This document shows, piece after piece, positions 45,848 through 56,444 of a stretch of DNA of 64,000 nucleotides. The stretch covers positions 128,001 to 192,000 of the forward strand of contig CAXXVO010000009.1 of NCBI GenBank assembly GCA_963422645.2. Direction: 5' to 3'. How positions within the stretch are numbered: the stretch's first letter is position 1; every line of letters starts with the position of its first letter. Source of the stretch: Alphaproteobacteria bacterium. GTDB lineage: Bacteria; Pseudomonadota; Alphaproteobacteria; UBA828. Both the position numbers and the translations under genes were made by a program. Under the pieces are notes generated by a model. The model saw nothing but the letters and a program-made list of their open reading frames with translations. It was not told the origin of the DNA and made no database searches.

Positions 45848-47362
45848 ATGCTGGTTGTGGAAACGATCGCGAAGATCCGTCGGGATCATCTGGTGAAGGG
45901 CGTTCCGATCAAGAAGCTCGCCCGGGATTTGAGGGTTTCCAAGAACACGATACGCAAGGTGGTGCGGGGCGATGCGACCTCGCACAGCTACGAGCGCAAG
46001 ATCCAGCCGATGCCGAAGCTTGGGCTGTGGGTGGAGGAGCTTGAGCGCCAGCTGAAGGCCAACGAGAAGAAGGCACGCAAGGATCGGCTGTCTCTTCTGC
46101 GGATTCATGAAGACCTTGTGTCGCTGGGCTACAAGGGCGGCTATGACGCGGTTCGCCGCTATGCCAGGGCCTGGCGGCGCCGGTGGCGGCTGTTGTCGCC
46201 GGCGCAGGCCTATGTGCCGCTGATCTTCGATCCCGGCGAGGCCTACCAGTTCGACTGGAGCCACGAGTACGCGCGTCTGTCGGGCGCGACGACCAGGGTG
46301 AAGGCGGCGCACATGCGGCTGTGCCACAGCCGGATGTATCTGGTCCAGATCTTTCCCCGCGAGAGCCAGGAGATGGTCTTCGAGGCGCACGAGCGTGCCT
46401 TCCGCTTCTTCGGCGGGGTCTGCCGGCGGGGCATCTACGACAACATGAAGACGGCGGTGAGCACGATCTTCGTGGGCAAGAAGCGGGACTACAACCGCCG
46501 CTTCCAGGAGCTGTGCTCGCACCATCTGGTGGAGCCTGTGGCGTGCACGCCAGGGGCTGGCTGGGAGAAGGGGCAGGTCGAGAAGCAGGTGGGTGACCTT
46601 CGCGGCCGCCTGTTCGTGCCCATCCCGCGGGGCCGCTCCTACGCCGAGATCAACGAGTGGCTGATGGATCGGTGCATCGAGGACGCCAAGAAGCATCCGC
46701 ATCCGACAATCCCGGGCAAGACGGTGTGGCAGGTGTTCGAGGAGGAGCAGCCCTTCCTGATGGCGTATCGCGGCCCCTTCGACGGCTTCCATGCCAGCGA
46801 GGTGTCGGTCTCGAAGACCTGTCTGGTGCGCTTCGACAACAACCAGTACAGCGTCGCGGCCCGCGCCGTCGGCCGGCCGGTGGACGTGCGGGCCTATGCC
46901 GATCGGATCGTCATCCGCCAGGACGGCGAGACCGTTGCCGAGCACCCCCGCAGCTTCGGGCGCGGCCGGTTCGTCTACGATCCGTGGCATTACGTGCCGA
47001 TCCTGACGCGGAAGCCCGGCGCGCTACGCAATGGCGCGCCCTTCAAGGACTGGCAGTTGCCCAACGCGCTCGGCCGCCTGCGAACCCGGCTCGCGGGCCA
47101 CGACGACGGCGACCGGCAGTTCGTCAAGGTGCTCGCGGCGGTGCTGGAGGACGGACTGGAGGCGGTTGAGGCGGCCTGTGCCGAGACGCTCGACTGCGGT
47201 GCCTGCAGCGCCGACGTGGTGCTCAACATCCTCGCCCGGCAGCGCCAGCCGGCACCGCCGGCAATCATCCCGACGCCCGAGGGCCTGCAGCTTCGCCACA
47301 AGCCGGTAGCCGACTGTCAGCGCTACGACAGCCTGAGGGAGGCCGGTCATGGAGCGTCATGA
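45848..47362 (+). CDS. istA: IS21 transposase IstA
   Basis: [20 protein letters not shown] and GWEKGQVE. Confidence 0.93.
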
Positions 47363-48077
47363 TGTGCTGGAGATGATGACCCAGCTGAAGCTCGCAGGTA
47401 TGCGCGCCGCTTACGACGACATCCTTGCCGACGGGCTCAAGCGCCGCCATCCGGTGCAACAGATCATCGGTACGCTGCTGCAGGTCGAGATCGCCGACAA
47501 GAGGGCCCGCTCGATCAAGTACCAGATGGCCTCCGCCAAGCTGCCGACGGTCAAGGAGCTGGCCGACTTCGACTTCGCCGCCTCGCCGGTCAACGAGCCC
47601 CTGATCCAGGAGCTCGCCGGCGGCGGCTTCCTCGAGGGCAAACGCAACATCGTGCTGGTCGGCGGCACCGGTACCGGCAAGACCCATCTCGCCGTCGCCA
47701 TCGCGCGGTCCTGCATCCGCAAGGGCGCGCGCGGCCGGTGCTACAACGTCGTCGACCTGGTCAACCTCCTCGAGGCCGAGCTTCGCGCCGGACGCCAGGG
47801 CCGCACTGCAGACCAGCTCGTCCGCCGCGACTTCGTCATCCTCGACGAGCTCGGCTACCTGCCCTTCGCCCAGGCCGGTGGGCAGCTGCTCTTCCATCTG
47901 ATGAGCCGGCTCTACGAGCGCACCTCGATCGTCATCACCACAAACCTCGCCTTCGGCGAATGGCCATCCGTCTTCGGCGACCCCAAGATGACCACAGCGC
48001 TGCTCGATCGCCTCACCCATCATTGCGAGATCATCGAGACCGGCAACGAGAGCTGGCGCTTCAAGAACCGCTCCTGA
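47349..48077 (+). CDS. istB: IS21 helper ATPase IstB
   Basis: [22 protein letters not shown] and LLDRLTHH. Confidence 0.95.
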
Positions 48078-48969: not shown

Positions 48970-50472
48970 TCAGGCGACGGCCCGCTTTGCGCGTGCCCAC
49001 TTGCCGCGGGGTTTGCGCGACCTGCGTTCGCAGGACCGGCCGGGGCGCGGGCGCTGACGCGCCTGGTTGATGCAGGAGAGGACATGGCTGAGGGTTTCGG
49101 CGACCATCGCCGTATGGCGCAGCAGCAGCGCTTCGAGGTTGCGCGCGACGGTGGCGAGGCCGTTGCTGAAGTTGGCTTTCATCGCCGGCTTGCCGTCGGC
49201 AGGGCGCTCGGCGTCGAGGCTTGCGTTGCTGCGGTTGGTGAAGAGCCGGGTCATGGCGATGAGGTTGAAGTGGGCGAAGAGCTCCTGGCGGACGCCGCGC
49301 TCGGTCTGGCTGTGGAAGGCCTCGACGGCCATGGCCTGTTTCGAGGTCTTGTAGAGTTCCTCGATTCCCCAGCGCGCGTGATAGAGCTCGGCCAGTTCCG
49401 CGACGCTCCAGGCCTTGGGGTCGAGGAGGGTGGTGGCGAGGATGAAGACCGTGCTGCCGATGCGGTAGCGGACCAGTCGCAGGCGCAGCGGGGTGGCGTC
49501 GACGTGCGGCGTCTTGCGGCGCAGCTTTCTCAGGGTGTCCTTTCCGGGAGCGACGGTGATCGGCGCGTCCGTGCGGCCGTCGGCGATGAAGGCGTCGAGG
49601 GCGGCGCCTGCCTTCTTCTTGATCCGGAACACGGGGTGCAGGCCGCGGGCGACATGGGCGTGCAGCATCTCCCAAGAGTAGTAGCCGCGGTCATAGACCA
49701 CGATGTCGTTGGCCGAGAGCGCCTTGAGGTGGGCGAGGGCGGCCCTTCTTTCGTCGCCGTGCGCGACCAGGTCGAAGTCCACCGGGATGTTCGCGTGCAG
49801 CCGGTAGAGGCAACTCAGCAGGCCCTGCGGGTAGTGGGCCGCCTCGGAGGGCGTGCGGTAGCCGGCCTTGAGCAGCGGCCGCGGCAGGTTGAGCTTGGAG
49901 CCGTCGACCGCGAACACGCGGTGGCCCTTCCAGGCCGGGCCGTCGGCGCGCTTGAGGATCTCGGCGTGCAGCGTCTTGAACACCGCCTCGTCGACCTTGG
50001 CCCGCGCCATGCACATCGCCGAGGCCGAGACCGGCGCCGGCTGCGGCAGTGCGACGCCCAGGACCCGGCACTGCTCCCACAGCCCGGCCAGCGTCGTGGC
50101 GTAGCCCGCGCGGCCGTTCGAGAACGCCAGCCGGAAGATGAAGAGCATGACGAGAAGGGTGTCGAGGACCCGCCGGCGGCTCTGCCACACCCGGTCGTGA
50201 TCGGCGGCCACCGCCGCCAGTGCGCCGATCAGGTCCTGCCACAGCGCCACGAAGGGATCGTCCGGCGCCAGCGCTGCCGGCCGTGTCCTGTTCCCGCGCC
50301 GCGCCGGCCGCGGGCCTTCGAGCAGGATCGAGCGGAAGTCCGGCGTCAGCGGGTAGACGTAGACGCTTTTGCGGGTCTTGCCCTTGCCGCCCCCGGTCTC
50401 GCCGAGACAGCGCCAGTTGGCCGCGCGGTAGCAGGCGCCGTCGAAGAGGCTGGGGTCCACGAAGGTCTCCAC
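48970..50472 (-). pseudogene. 3' part of DUF4338-IS4 transposase fusion
   Basis: ETFVD...F.G.CYRAANW..LGET (end of DUF4338), then AVDGSK, VYDRGY and YHARWGIEE. Confidence 0.88.
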
Positions 50473-50492
50473 GAACGTCACAGACTACTATC

Positions 50493-50924
50493 TTGCAGGC
50501 TTCCGAGGCTCCTGAGCCCGTTCGCATTCGACGCTACAAGCATCCTTTCGACGGTGAGGCGATCGAGATTCTCGATCGGCGCAAAGGAGGTTACGGGGGC
50601 CGGACTCTGAAGGTTCGGATGCCGGACGGCAGCTGTTGTTGGATACCAGCGGCATGGACGAGCCTTGGAGCCCGTCCCGAGGATGCACCACGCCTGATCG
50701 GAGAGTTGTCTGATTTCCTCACCCTCCTTAATCTTCTGAATGACCTTGATGAGAGGGAACTCAGGCGCGATGGATGCGGAGCAGGAGTTGGCGCTGATCG
50801 CGCTGATGGAGTGGGAGGAGCGCCGGGACCGGTGGCTGGCGTTTCCGGCTCCGGACCGGGATCGCGTCGTGCAGGGTCTGGCCGATCTGATGGTTCGGAT
50901 TGCGGATCGGGAGGCGGCCGATGA
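50493..50924 (+). CDS. DUF5372/Y4bD-like small protein; frame open through the left junction, only a TTG start in the integrated state
   Basis: VRI...HPF.G.......R and MPDGS...IPAAWT motifs. The stop overlaps the recombinase ATG (ATGA). Confidence 0.6.
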   Translation: MQASEAPEPVRIRRYKHPFDGEAIEILDRRKGGYGGRTLKVRMPDGSCCWIPAAWTSLGARPEDAPRLIGELSDFLTLLNLLNDLDERELRRDGCGAGVGADRADGVGGAPGPVAGVSGSGPGSRRAGSGRSDGSDCGSGGGR

Positions 50925-50961
50925 CGGTCGATCCGTCGAAGATCACCCAGCGTCATCTTGA
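50771..50961 (+). CDS. Small hypothetical protein overlapping the recombinase start
   Basis: W...P...R..VV..LA.LM.R pattern resembles small ORFs recalled upstream of such recombinases. Overlaps its neighbours. Confidence 0.4.
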
Positions 50962-53101
50962 GCGTCTTGCAGTTGTCTACGTTCGCCAGTCGACACCCTT
51001 GCAAGTGAACGCGCACCAGGAATCGCAGCTGCGCCAATACGCGCTTGGCGAGCGTGCCCGGGAGATTGGCTGGCCGGCCGAGCGGATACGGACGATCGAC
51101 GCCGATCTTGGCGAGAGCGCAAGCGAGAAGGCGCGCGGCGAGCGTGGCGGCTTTCGGGAGATGTGCGACCTGATCGCCCGGGACCATGTCGGGGGCATCT
51201 TCGGGATTGAGGTTTCGCGGCTCGCCAGGAACACGATGGAATGGTTTCAGCTTCTCGATCTATGTCGCAGGCACGACACGGTTCTGGTTGAGGACTGCCA
51301 CATCTACTGCCCGAGCCGGGACGACGACTCCCTTGTCCTGGGGATCAAGGGAACCGTGAGCGCCGCTGAGCTGTCTCTTATTCGCGCCCGGATGGAGGGC
51401 GGAAAGCGGAACAAGGCGCTTCGTGGCGAGTTGTACTCGCGCGTTCCGATCGGATTTGTGCGGGATGGCTCGACTTTGCGGAAGGATCCGGATGCCCGGG
51501 TTCAGGCGGCGATTGCAACGGTCTTTGCGCGTTTTCGGCAAGCCGGTTCGGCCCGCCAGGCGACGATGCTGCTGCGTGAGGCGGGCGAGGATGTTCCCTC
51601 TCGCCGGCACCCGGGGGCAGCATTGGAATGGGGCCCGGCGCGCTATGAACGGGTGTACCGCATCCTCACCAACCCGGCGATGGGCGGCGCCTATGCCTAC
51701 GGCTTCAAACGCGGCGTTGGTCACGGTGCGCCGCTGCGGCCGGTCCAGGAGCGCTGGGATATTCTTCAGCCGGAGAAGCATGAGGGATATGTCAGTTGGG
51801 CAGAATGGCTTGAAGTACAGGAGCAGCTGGCCCGCAACCACATGGCTCCGGACGGAGCCCGCGGCGCGGCGCGGGAAGGGTCGGCTCTGCTCCAGGGTCT
51901 CGCGGTCTGCGGCGGCTGCGGATTGCCGATGACCGTCTACTACAGCAAGACGGGCTGGGGGTATGAGTGCCGCAAGCGCGATGCTGCGCGCCGGCGCGGC
52001 GGTTGTTGGTCGACAGGCGGCAAGCGCGTTGATGCGGAAGTTGCCCGTCTGTTTCTCGATGCGGTCACGCCGGCGGGGGTGGAGGCGGCCCGGCAGGCGG
52101 CTTGTGATGTTGCTGAACGCGGCCTGCGCGCGTTGCGCCGTTGGGAGCTGGATCTTGAGCACTGCCGGTACGAGGCGCGGCTTGCCGAGCGGCGCTACAA
52201 GCAGGTCGATCCCGACAACCGTCTGATTGCGGCAACGCTGGAGCGCGAGTGGGAGAAGGCGCTTCGCGCCGAGAAGGCTGCACAGGAAGCGCTTGAGGCG
52301 GCACGGGCGCGTCAGCCCGCGGCCCCTGCCCCGGCGGTTTTCGAGGGTCTCGGCGCGCGCCTGTCGCAGGTCTGGGGGGCGTCGTCGACGACCATGCGCG
52401 AGCGCAAGCGCCTGCTCGCCTGCCTCCTCGACGAGGTGACGATCGAGCTTGCGCGACAGGAGCGTGAGATCATGGCAACATTGCGCTGGCGTGGCGGGCA
52501 GATCGACGAGATCACTTTGCCGATGCTCGCGGGCTCTCCGACACCCCGGCGCGATGAGCGCAGCACGGTCGAGCTCGTGCGCAAGCTGTCATGCTTTTAC
52601 AACGACCGGGAGACCGCGAAGGTTCTCACCCGCCAGGGACGGCGCACAGCACGGGGTCTGGATTTCACGGCCGAGCTTGTTGGCAGCCTGCGTCGCCGCC
52701 ATGGCATTGCGCCCTACCAGCCCGACGGGGACGAGCCGGTGCTCATGGGCGTTGCCGATGTGGCGAAGGAGATCGGAGTCTCGGATGACACCATCTATCG
52801 CTGGATCCGCGAGGGGCTGGTTCCGGTTGCCCAGCCCGATATCGAAGGTGCTCCTCTTCGGATCCGGATGACCCCGACCTTGCGCGAGCGCTTTCGTGAG
52901 GCGCCTCCGGAGGGGTTTGTTCCCCTCGCTGTGGCAATGGATCGTCTGGGTGTCACGCGGCAGACGGTCTGGGAACGGATCAAGGCGGGCAGGCTGGACA
53001 GCTGCCATGTGACCCGCGGCAAGACGCGCGGACTGTATGTGCGTTTGCCGGTCGAGGACGAACTGCCGCTGCTGCGCGGGCTCAACGGTGATGGGGGGTG
53101 A
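50921..53101 (+). CDS. Large serine recombinase with C-terminal HTH extensions
   Basis: YVRQST catalytic Ser, D.DLG.S, EVSRLARN, recombinase domain, LLQGL.VCGGC zinc ribbon, VDPDNRL coiled coil and HTHs. GGAGG RBS. Confidence 0.92.
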   Translation: MTVDPSKITQRHLERLAVVYVRQSTPLQVNAHQESQLRQYALGERAREIGWPAERIRTIDADLGESASEKARGERGGFREMCDLIARDHVGGIFGIEVSRLARNTMEWFQLLDLCRRHDTVLVEDCHIYCPSRDDDSLVLGIKGTVSAAELSLIRARMEGGKRNKALRGELYSRVPIGFVRDGSTLRKDPDARVQAAIATVFARFRQAGSARQATMLLREAGEDVPSRRHPGAALEWGPARYERVYRILTNPAMGGAYAYGFKRGVGHGAPLRPVQERWDILQPEKHEGYVSWAEWLEVQEQLARNHMAPDGARGAAREGSALLQGLAVCGGCGLPMTVYYSKTGWGYECRKRDAARRRGGCWSTGGKRVDAEVARLFLDAVTPAGVEAARQAACDVAERGLRALRRWELDLEHCRYEARLAERRYKQVDPDNRLIAATLEREWEKALRAEKAAQEALEAARARQPAAPAPAVFEGLGARLSQVWGASSTTMRERKRLLACLLDEVTIELARQEREIMATLRWRGGQIDEITLPMLAGSPTPRRDERSTVELVRKLSCFYNDRETAKVLTRQGRRTARGLDFTAELVGSLRRRHGIAPYQPDGDEPVLMGVADVAKEIGVSDDTIYRWIREGLVPVAQPDIEGAPLRIRMTPTLRERFREAPPEGFVPLAVAMDRLGVTRQTVWERIKAGRLDSCHVTRGKTRGLYVRLPVEDELPLLRGLNGDGG

Positions 53102-53290
53102 CCATGCCCGGACCGTCAGGCAAAACGCCCGATGCAGATCCGCACCTCCAACGTGCGATACTGGAAAATCACGTCCGGCACGATGTAAAGGTCGCCGCGG
53201 CGGCAACAACGGAATCCAAACCGCCTTTTCTATCAATGCGGTAGAAACGCCCGCCCACCTGCACAACGGAGAAGCATTATGAAGCCTTCA

Positions 53291-54009
53291 TCTCCACCAG
53301 AACCGGGCGCGCTCCGAAGCGCGCCTCCCAGTCGCCGGGCAGCTGGCGCAGCGCCATCGACAGCGCTTTCGACGCCAGGTTGTCGACCCGGACCCAGGGA
53401 AAGATCAGGAAACGCGTGTGACCCACGACCAGATCGAGGTGCTTGCGGAAGCCTTCCGCCGGCCACCCGATCCACTCGTCGCGGCAGGGCAGCGTGCGCG
53501 ACGCCCGGGCAAACAGAAGGCAGCCCAGAGGCCGCCCGTGGCGGTCCAGGAGAAAATAGCGCAGATGCGCGCCGACCAGACGATGCAGCCCGAGATAGTG
53601 GTGGCGCGCGACGAACTCGTTCCACAGCCCGCCCTCCTCCTTGCCCGCCGCAATCGACAGGCGCAGCGGCATCAGCGCGGCCAGGTCCTCCGCGATCGCC
53701 GCGGCCGGCGCCGTCCGCTCGCTCCGGGCCATCGCCTCCTGCGGCCCCCGCACCTGCGCCTCGTCCCGCGCCGGCAGGGTCAGGATGCCCAGCCGCTCCA
53801 ACTCCTCCAGCATCCGCAGGCAGACCGCGACACGGTTCCGCCCGCTCGGCGCGCGCCAGTTCAAATGCTCGCAGATCGTGTGCCCGAGCTCGTTGCGGCT
53901 GATCGCCGGAAACAGCGCCACCGTCTCCTGGATGTCGGCAATCTGCCGGCGGGTCAGACGTCTGCCGAAAAAGGTCGTCGACTTCAGCGCGGTGATGCGG
54001 GGGTCCATG
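53291..54009 (-). pseudogene. 5' part (DUF4338/DruA-like domain) of the IS4 fusion gene
   Basis: FFGR, SR.EL...IC..L.W, WNEFV.RHHYLG...VG..LRY, RD.WIGW and RFLI.PWV...NLAS..L. Confidence 0.85.
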
Positions 54010-54178
54010 GGCCGGCTCCACTGACAGGGGGACAGCCACAGTGTGCCAAAGCACACGCCGCCGGTCAATCCCCCTCGTGCGGGAAACGCCGAGACCGACA
54101 ATCCACACAAGAAATCAACTCGTTACGACACCACCAAAAAAACCCCGGAACAATCTTCGCGCCAAATGAATGCCATTG

Positions 54179-55262: not shown

Positions 55263-56444
55263 ATGACCAAACGCACCGACCTCACCATCTCCAAGCGAAC
55301 CGTCGACTCGCTTTCCGCCGAAACTCGGGACACGGTCTACTGGGATCGTGACCTGCCCGGCTTCGGCGTCCGCGTCTACCCCTCAGGACGAAAGGTCTAC
55401 GTCGTCCAGTCTCGCGCGCGGGGCGCGCCCAAGCGTGTCTCCCTGGGCCGCCATGGCGAGATCACTCCGGATCAGGCGCGCAAGGAGGCCGCTGTCGTGA
55501 TCGACCGCATCAAGAGGGGCATGGACCCGATGAACCCGCCGCCTGCGCCCGAGATCACCGTCGCCGATCTCGCCGAGCGATACATGAGTGGCCATGTGGC
55601 CCTGAACTGCAACGCCCACACCGCCGGCATCTATCGGGGCTCGCTTGAGAACCACATCCTGCCGGCTCTCGGCGCGATGCCGATCAGCGCGGTCGACGGC
55701 GGGCATGTGTCGGCGCTGCACTACGGGATGCGCGACACCCCCCGTGCCGCCAACCGGGCGCTTATGATCCTGAAGAATATGTTCTCCCTGGCGGTGGCCT
55801 GGGGCCTAGCACCAGAGGGCAGCAACCCCTGCCGGGCGGTGCGCAAATACAAGGAGCGCAAGCGCGAGCGCTTCCTGACGGTGGAGGAGTATCGTCGACT
55901 GGGCCGGGCGCTTACCGAGGCCGAAGCGAATGGCACGGTCTCGCCCTACGCGGTGGCGGCGCTACGTCTGCTGATGCTGACCGGGTGCCGACTGACCGAG
56001 GTCCTTACCCTGCGATGGGACGATGTGGACCGGACGGCGGGGGAGTTCCGGCTGCGTGCCGGCAAGACCGGGGCGCGCATGGTGCCGCTGACGCCTACCG
56101 CCGAGCGGGTGCTGGCGGGCATCCTCAGCGTTCCGGGCAACCCTTGGGTGATCGTAGGCAAGACACCTGGGGTCCGTCTGTCGAGCCTGACCCGGGAGTG
56201 GTATCGGCTTCGGGCGCTGGCCGGGCTTGAGGACGTGCGCATCCACGACTTGCGGCATTCCTTCGCCAGCCGCGCGCTGGCGCTGGGCGAGAGCTTGAGC
56301 ATGATCGGCGGGCTGCTCGGCCATGCGGGCCTGGAGAGCACGGCGCGCTACGCCCATCTGGCGCGGGACACGGAGAGGGCTTCGGCGGCCAGGGTCGGCG
56401 CCAGCATCGGCGCCGACATCATGGCGGCGGCCGGCAGGGAATGA
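55263..56444 (+). CDS. Tyrosine integrase with N-terminal arm-binding (DUF4102-like) domain, 1
   Basis: WD..LPGFGVRV..SG.K, LTGCR..E, KTG, HDLRHSFAS, LLGH and RY. Confidence 0.92.
   Translation: MTKRTDLTISKRTVDSLSAETRDTVYWDRDLPGFGVRVYPSGRKVYVVQSRARGAPKRVSLGRHGEITPDQARKEAAVVIDRIKRGMDPMNPPPAPEITVADLAERYMSGHVALNCNAHTAGIYRGSLENHILPALGAMPISAVDGGHVSALHYGMRDTPRAANRALMILKNMFSLAVAWGLAPEGSNPCRAVRKYKERKRERFLTVEEYRRLGRALTEAEANGTVSPYAVAALRLLMLTGCRLTEVLTLRWDDVDRTAGEFRLRAGKTGARMVPLTPTAERVLAGILSVPGNPWVIVGKTPGVRLSSLTREWYRLRALAGLEDVRIHDLRHSFASRALALGESLSMIGGLLGHAGLESTARYAHLARDTERASAARVGASIGADIMAAAGRE

Follow-up and report, generated by a model that had tools for sequence, protein, structure and literature searches.

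The 64,000-nt stretch of DNA analysed here (the window; positions 128,001 to 192,000 of contig CAXXVO010000009.1, assembly GCA_963422645.2, from an Alphaproteobacteria bacterium of the UBA828 lineage) contains a compact mobile element at 50466-53297 (2,825 bp), inserted within an IS4-type transposase gene. The element encodes, in this order, a small DUF5372-like protein, a short open reading frame (ORF) denoted orf2 and a large serine recombinase, and its first gene appears to be split by the attachment site, with the start at the right end and the body at the left end. The features of the element and of the interrupted gene are the following:

48970-50465, minus strand: C-terminal half of the target gene, an IS4-family DDE transposase (DDE_Tnp_1, 3.9e-21; transpos_IS4_1, 2.5e-46).
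50466-50472, no strand: left core TCTCCAC (attL), the 7 nt by which 13 empty sites overlap.
50472-50924, plus strand: body of the first gene, with the DUF5372-like domain at about 50541-50744, followed by a tail overlapping orf2.
50770-50961, plus strand: orf2, in the +1 frame relative to DUF5372, with an acidic C-terminus, ending 40 nt inside the recombinase gene.
50909-50914, plus strand: ribosome site of the recombinase, GGGAGG, 6 nt ahead of the recombinase ATG.
50921-53101, plus strand: large serine recombinase of 726 aa (Resolvase, 8.5e-17; Recombinase, 2.4e-10; HTH_17, 4.9e-10).
53102-53267, plus strand: right-end spacer, absent from most relatives, in which the outward start lies no more than about 25 nt from the recombinase stop.
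53268-53271, plus strand: Shine-Dalgarno (SD)-like GGAG, 7 nt ahead of the outward ATG.
53279-53297, plus strand: start and first codons (MKPSS...) of the split gene, in frame with 50472 onward through the core.
53291-53297, no strand: right core TCTCCAC (attR), fixed by the same empty sites.
53298-54110, minus strand: N-terminal half of the target gene, with a DruA/DUF4338 domain (DruA, 9e-28).

The ends of the element were determined by a BLAST search of the element with 300-nt flanks against its own genome, which returned 45 matches. Among these were 13 uninterrupted target copies, in each of which the matches to the two flanks share precisely the 7-nt core, as well as full copies of the element, four in the same insertion sequence (IS) and three in other flanks representing paralogous targets, along with several more copies that are interrupted or truncated. 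The single core in the 13 empty sites, the presence of the core at both ends of the insert and the lack of target duplication are indicative of conservative insertion, which was likewise found, with short cores, in three of the related families described below (G440, G443 and G011). When the insert is removed, the target frame reads ...ARPVLVETFVDPSLF..., and the insertion falls into a conserved coding motif of the DruA-domain/IS4 transposase gene, PVL[VI]ETFV; all three copies in other flanks are located at the motif PVL(V/I)ETFV(D/E) of paralogous DruA-type genes. In two of these three copies (L006 and L007), the right core is TCTCGAT and the junction sequence is unchanged. The crossover lies within TCTC, the only four nucleotides that the two cores have in common in these two paralogous targets. 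The element is antisense to the target gene in every case examined.

At the right end, the sequence reads ATG (53279) AAG CCT TCA TCT CCA C and runs to the element end. Joining the two ends through the core places this ATG 12 nt from the core and the core 51 nt from the domain, a total of 63 nt, which is a multiple of three with no intervening stop. The region from the left core to the DUF5372 motif has a single in-frame ATG, GTG or TTG, namely the TTG at 50493, which is not preceded by a purine-rich stretch. At the far end of the body, the stop codon TGA (50922-50924) overlaps the recombinase ATG at 50921, forming the tetranucleotide ATGA (50921-50924). An earlier reading of the window (hereafter the original prediction) had claimed that the core TCTCCAC bounds the element on both sides, that the outward GGAG-7 nt-ATG is in frame with the left ORF, that the left frame has neither an ATG nor a ribosome-binding site ahead of its conserved motif and that the frame stops on the recombinase start, and all these features of the locus were borne out. 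A complete DUF5372 gene thus appears to be carried solely by the joined ends, that is, by an excised circle or a head-to-tail tandem.

Relatives of the element were collected from one genome per species; 542 candidate stretches were confirmed and 80 were kept for analysis, bearing the phylum labels Actinomycetota, Acidobacteriota, Pseudomonadota, Chloroflexota, Planctomycetota, Verrucomicrobiota and Gemmatimonadota, among others. Recombinases with 35-43% identity were detected in 11 of 61 related genomes (own genome counted), and with a profile built from seven DUF5372-like ORFs, 109 of 127 loci (duplicates included) were found to have a matching ORF upstream of the recombinase. The loci comprised 43 compact elements versus 42 longer ones, in which the DUF5372 frame ends at a separate stop and extra sequence precedes orf2, with a helix-turn-helix gene in this position where looked for. 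Element ends could be fixed solely where copies in different flanks, empty sites, or both exist, yielding nine families:

G000 (the window's element): core TCTCCAC; empty sites and copies in different flanks.
G020: core CG; three flanks.
G005: core TTGTA, in the FYN codons of an IS3-type transposase; two flanks.
G011: core ACCG; empty sites.
G440: core GG; empty site.
G441: core GG; two target types, with both Walker-A frames restored.
G439: core AT, in the IS66-type ...RPIALGRKNYLF motif; two copies.
G443: core GACCGG; exact empty site.
G444: core GG; paralogous empty sites.

In all nine families, the right-end start (ATG in eight, GTG in one) joins the DUF5372 frame without a stop. The distances from the start to the domain (45, 48, 48, 51, 51, 60, 63, 63 and 66 nt) take six values, all of them multiples of three, indicating that insertions and deletions have occurred but in threes alone, and the distance from the ATG to the core spans 8-22 nt. 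Homologues with a random frame across the junction, named in the original prediction as an outcome at odds with it, were not found. The junction frame is robust to the exact dinucleotide of the crossover, since any crossover that restores the frame of the coding target gives the same junction frame.

The longest common string between the end windows, tried as a proxy for the core, was non-discriminating (37 of 71 real pairs against 29-33 of 71 shuffled locus pairs) and noisy in its per-locus listing. For L114, the longest common string (8 nt) yielded an out-of-frame join and was overruled, the register lying one base away: it was dropped because a second insertion (L128/L129) together with the restored Walker-A frames of both targets fixes the register. 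Neither a second copy nor an empty site was found for L010 (G017), and no empty site for L081, while L025 (G013) is broken inside the recombinase and lacks the right end. In a tenth family, G009, copy L026 is in frame when read by hand; it is the sole copy with a consistent core, and so the family was kept outside the nine. The G009 copies L026, L034 and L017 have a common right boundary, with left and right flanks that do not derive from one target, two of the left flanks being ssb-paralogue-like, a pattern suggestive of recombination between copies. In locus L011 of G011, oriented positions 836-1005 are occupied by a 170-bp repeat that has 11-nt terminal inverted repeats and occurs about 25 times in the genome; it sits in a conserved CTGCCC...GGGCAG palindrome just inside the left end, parting the left core from DUF5372.

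To compare internal with outward starts, 82 non-redundant loci were scanned from 15 codons ahead of the domain start to 5 codons inside it. An internal ATG with an SD sequence ahead of or at the start of the DUF5372 domain was present in none of the 82: 44 had no ATG, GTG or TTG, 31 had a start codon without an SD, and 7 had a GTG or TTG with an SD; four of the nine end-fixed families have no candidate internal start at all. The conserved internal start in homologues that the original prediction had set against its own proposal was, accordingly, not found. By contrast, an outward SD with an ATG located at -25 to +30 nt of the recombinase stop was identified in 49 of 76 loci, against 1 of 76 in the reverse-strand control and 3 of 76 in the control inside the gene, and in 9 of those 49 loci the outward ATG overlaps the recombinase stop. 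The outward ATG of the window's element lies 178 nt past the recombinase stop. The 48-aa ORF at 53098-53244 (plus strand), which has a GGGGGG-ATG start directly after the recombinase stop, where most relatives have the outward start, could represent either an earlier start that has been displaced or an additional small gene.

The resolvase catalytic domain of the recombinase, with the catalytic serine, matches PF00239 (8.5e-17) over residues 17-170, and R22, Q23 and S24 are invariant in six aligned relatives; the recombinase domain matches PF07508 (2.4e-10), the Zn_ribbon_recom match (24.1 bits) is just below the cut-off of 25.3, and the cysteines C330, C333, C350 and C362 are invariant in the aligned relatives. 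Excisionase-type HTH_17/MerR-like motifs were found at the C-terminus (52740-53010, residues ~608-690), which is unusual for a large serine recombinase.

Between the DUF5372 domain and the recombinase lies orf2, which the original prediction had missed. The 156-aa ORF that it had proposed is a real open frame; it is, however, composite, consisting of the DUF5372 domain and a tail that runs over the better-conserved orf2. A counterpart of orf2 immediately precedes the recombinase gene in most of the 85 listed loci, with its own ribosome site in the relatives, and in 9 of 12 pairs orf2 was more conserved than the DUF5372 tail that it overlaps. Neither Pfam nor NCBIfam gave a match for orf2, which we regard as a second candidate cofactor. 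The DUF5372 frame reaches the recombinase start in all 43 compact elements, through an ATGA or GTGA overlap in 35 of them, as in the window, through TAATG in one, and to within a few nucleotides in seven. When the codons of orf2 were shuffled, the DUF5372 frame stayed open with p of 0.0085-0.80 per locus, and the product over loci, 10^-31.8, is overstated because the loci are related, although the tendency is plain. Because the DUF5372 frame has been kept open up to the recombinase start, with the stop and start overlapping, the comparison supports coupling of the recombinase to DUF5372 by termination-reinitiation.

The window's protein matches DUF5372 (PF17342) with 18.4-19.9 bits, under the Pfam gathering cut-off of 25, whereas E <= 0.001 was reached by 14 of the 30 relatives in the alignment (best 3.9e-27). 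Its nearest Atlas clusters are DUF5372 at 0.92, a value used as a lead only, and a word-based protein search with the small ORF gave no match; we treat the protein as a probable divergent member of the family. No paper naming DUF5372 was found in a literature search that left subscription journals and supplements outside. A structural model of DUF5372 from the 30-sequence alignment (predicted local distance difference test, pLDDT, 81.6) is a four-stranded barrel with a C-terminal helix, for which the best Foldseek matches are SH3, Tudor and chromo-type barrels; these are weak (best E 0.059), and the model is taken to indicate an SH3-like barrel, with the fold class alone being used. A sequence search of solved structures yielded nothing below E 0.7. 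In a predicted complex with the recombinase, DUF5372 scored 0.67 compared to 0.39 for the best of three controls. Of 80 solved complexes, 58 attain that mark, as do 2 of 110 mismatched pairs, a calibration that is approximate given the custom alignments; at least 70% of the contacts are common to the runs, and the pLDDT of the partner is 64-65. The modelled interface brings the C-terminal helix of DUF5372 together with recombinase residues 331-334, 381-394 and 468-528, which are predicted to form the zinc ribbon and the base of the presumed coiled-coil, where directionality factors bind. The model supports binding of DUF5372 to the recombinase and is silent on the direction of its effect.

Together, these observations support the interpretation put forward in the original prediction, and we consider it probable that this is a compact site-specific element with a first gene split by its attachment site, made whole on the joined ends and signalling the excised state through DUF5372. 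In the proposed mechanism, the element, carrying DUF5372, orf2 and the recombinase, would insert without duplication such that the attachment site splits the first gene, leaving the ribosome site, the start and the first four to five codons on the right and the remainder on the left. On an excised circle, ribosomes initiating at the joined start would read the DUF5372 domain, continue through the region overlapping orf2 and stop on the recombinase start (ATGA), so that circle-specific translation would be handed on to the recombinase. The small SH3-like DUF5372 protein would then bind the recombinase at the base of the coiled-coil and thereby report that the element is excised.

Several observations weigh against this scheme or qualify it. 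No joined ends were seen in the contigs of three public runs, which contained only the 50465>53291 joint of the empty site; since rare forms are lost from contigs, a missing circle junction there is not evidence of absence, and the portion examined of a raw-read run contained no reads of this organism and 0 reads on the stretch. DUF5372 directly downstream of a recombinase, as in an assembled junction or a tandem, was found in none of the loci analysed, and there were no short contigs with terminal overlaps. A scan of the integrated form revealed no sigma-70-type promoter at 50300-53500; the promoter for the outward SD-ATG must lie in the right end or further upstream, because the SD-ATG is itself upstream of the join. 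The RNA folds of the right-end and joined transcripts are unremarkable (z of -0.6 and +1.0, respectively). Separate ribosome sites precede the recombinase and orf2, and because that of the recombinase is a good one (GGGAGG), this gene need not be silent when integrated. The switch-on in the excised form alone, as originally predicted, is backed for the junction-built start, by the frames of nine out of nine families, and need not extend to the recombinase. The nine families are, moreover, related by descent and do not represent nine independent trials. An automated test that derived the frame from the target genes was weak, with 12 of 20 cases in frame and 4 each in the other two phases; of the loci that it called out of frame, L095 and L074 are in frame by script and L064 and L098 by hand reading.

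The most serious competing explanation is that the outward SD-ATG is part of the recombinase-binding site, the frame being a frozen accident of half-site spacing, with translation of DUF5372 beginning at an internal or non-canonical codon. The attachment sites of several families have an inverted-repeat half-site that encloses the SD and the ATG, the right-arm SD/ATG being the reverse complement of a left-arm motif (9 of 9 nt in G439, 12 of 15 columns with one gap in G020/G444, and 7 of 8 in G440); the spacing between the ATG and the mirrored motif is 27 nt in five of the nine families; and there are in-frame codons that could serve as alternative starts, namely, the TTG at 50493 in the window's element and TTG or GTG ahead of the domain in some of the other families. 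Conservation of the ATG and of the frame could thus stem partly from the geometry of recombinase binding and from common descent. A fixed spacing is nevertheless hard to reconcile with the range of ATG-to-core distances and with total distances that vary in multiples of three, all nine joins being stop-free; L015 and L074, which are ~83% identical overall, differ by 6 nt in the ATG-to-domain stretch. No SD-ATG mirror was seen in the window's element, in which the best match between the arms is that of the codons immediately following the ATG to a segment located 21 nt inside the left arm, and more than half of the scanned loci have no canonical start ahead of the domain, with ATG and SD combined in none. 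We consider this explanation unlikely, albeit the strongest of the rivals.

Two further alternatives appear less probable still. The integrated element might produce DUF5372 as a fusion that is initiated in the flanking target DNA, the right-end ATG merely translating outward into the flank: the ORF at 50220-50924 is indeed open across attL, extending 252 nt upstream to a GTG at 50220, and several relatives are likewise open into their flanks. However, the flanks vary between copies and families, L010 has an in-frame stop right at the left boundary and no start after it, and with the element antisense to its target in all cases examined, an open frame is expected there by chance in GC-rich DNA; such a fusion would also leave the conserved outward SD and ATG, and the frame match, unexplained, making it very improbable. 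The other alternative, that the arrangement is a relic, with immobile copies and a join devoid of present function, draws on the several own-genome copies that are interrupted or contain stops or frameshifts and on the failure to see a circle. It is hardly credible given that an intact 726-aa recombinase is present in six own-genome copies that are 99-100% identical, that these copies occupy at least four different targets of one motif and that the layout is kept at 35-43% recombinase identity across several phyla.

The favoured reading, in which the joined ends build the start of DUF5372, places the element next to several known systems. Circle-junction promoters are a feature of IS911, IS30 and Tn4451/TnpX. 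In IS1111/IS110 elements (ISEc11 and ISEc21), the -35 and -10 are brought together at the circle junction, and some IS110-type elements target conserved codons of transposase genes, according to the sections consulted of the corresponding report (PMC11187229). The window's element resembles these in that the abutted ends of the circle would switch on element genes; however, the effect there is on transcription (-35/-10), whereas here it would be on translation, with a ribosome site and start codon joined to an ORF. The SSV-type, or 'suicidal', integrase genes of the archaeal viruses and plasmids SSV1, pTN3 and pT26-2 contain the attachment site and are split on integration, and self-disrupting recombinases are called exclusive to archaea in the sections consulted of a review (PMC8371274). 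The likeness lies in an element gene that contains the attachment site and is whole in the circular form alone. The archaeal genes differ in encoding tyrosine recombinases and being split mid-gene, whereas in the window's element the ORF of the bacterial large serine recombinase (50921-53101) is intact and an accessory gene is split after about five codons, which takes away its translation start alone.

The directionality factors of large serine integrases, such as gp3 of phiC31 and SprB of SPbeta, are described as small, structurally diverse cofactors in the consulted portions of three reports (PMC5814800, PMC11795197, PMC11722253), the first of which places the binding of gp3 to the integrase at the zinc domain near the coiled-coil. 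DUF5372 is predicted, from the modelled complex, to bind the same zinc domain/coiled-coil region, and is likened to these factors by the predicted site, not by sequence or fold. The known directionality factors are complete genes in the integrated prophage, whereas one produced solely after excision would presumably act in another manner, or in the opposite direction. The gin element pairs a serine recombinase with a small accessory gene. Located in gerE of Bacillus cereus, gin is a non-prophage gene-intervening element presented in a paper that, in the portion consulted, discusses serine recombinases (PMC5595907). It differs in being host-domesticated and confined to a single site, with developmental excision, and no split start is reported in that portion. 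Within the limits of the literature search noted above, no described bacterial element was found whose ends assemble a translation start. The comparative evidence supports a putative new form of circle-dependent gene activation, along with two side findings, what appears to be a widespread DUF5372-orf2-recombinase family homing to conserved codons of IS genes and an apparent triple-frame overlap at the recombinase start.

If correct, this mode of activation would correspond, at the level of translation, to the IS junction promoters and, among bacterial serine recombinases, to the split integrase genes of archaeal viruses, and it would give the DUF5372 family a testable role. Large serine recombinases are genome-engineering tools, and both a new class of small cofactors that report or set direction and a set of compact recombinases targeting short, defined protein motifs would be of use in that field. 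It would also follow that annotation pipelines cannot call the true start of such genes from integrated copies. More tentatively, the elements might form a closed translational ring on the circle, with DUF5372 as a state-sensing cofactor that flips or locks the direction of the recombinase, and constitute a multi-phylum guild of hyperparasites, a set of proposals that we regard as possible and somewhat less probable than its negation. In the ring, the recombinase stop would overlap the start of the split gene (ATGA, in many relatives) and the DUF5372 stop would overlap the recombinase start. In the guild, the elements would home to conserved codons of IS4/DruA, IS3 ('FYN'), IS21 IstB (Walker A) and IS66 ('GRKNWLF') genes, inactivating those genes.

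The targets of relatives (L016, L055, L095, L114 and L122) are conserved coding motifs in genes of other mobile elements, including the FYN codons of IS3-type transposases, the Walker A motif (GPPGTGK-like) of IstB-type ATPases and the ...IALGRKNYLF motif of IS66-type transposases. In the window itself, an IstB-like ATPase with the Walker A sequence GTGKTHL is encoded at 47349-48077 (plus strand) and a phage-type tyrosine integrase at 55263-56444 (plus strand), marking the region around the element as dense in mobile elements.

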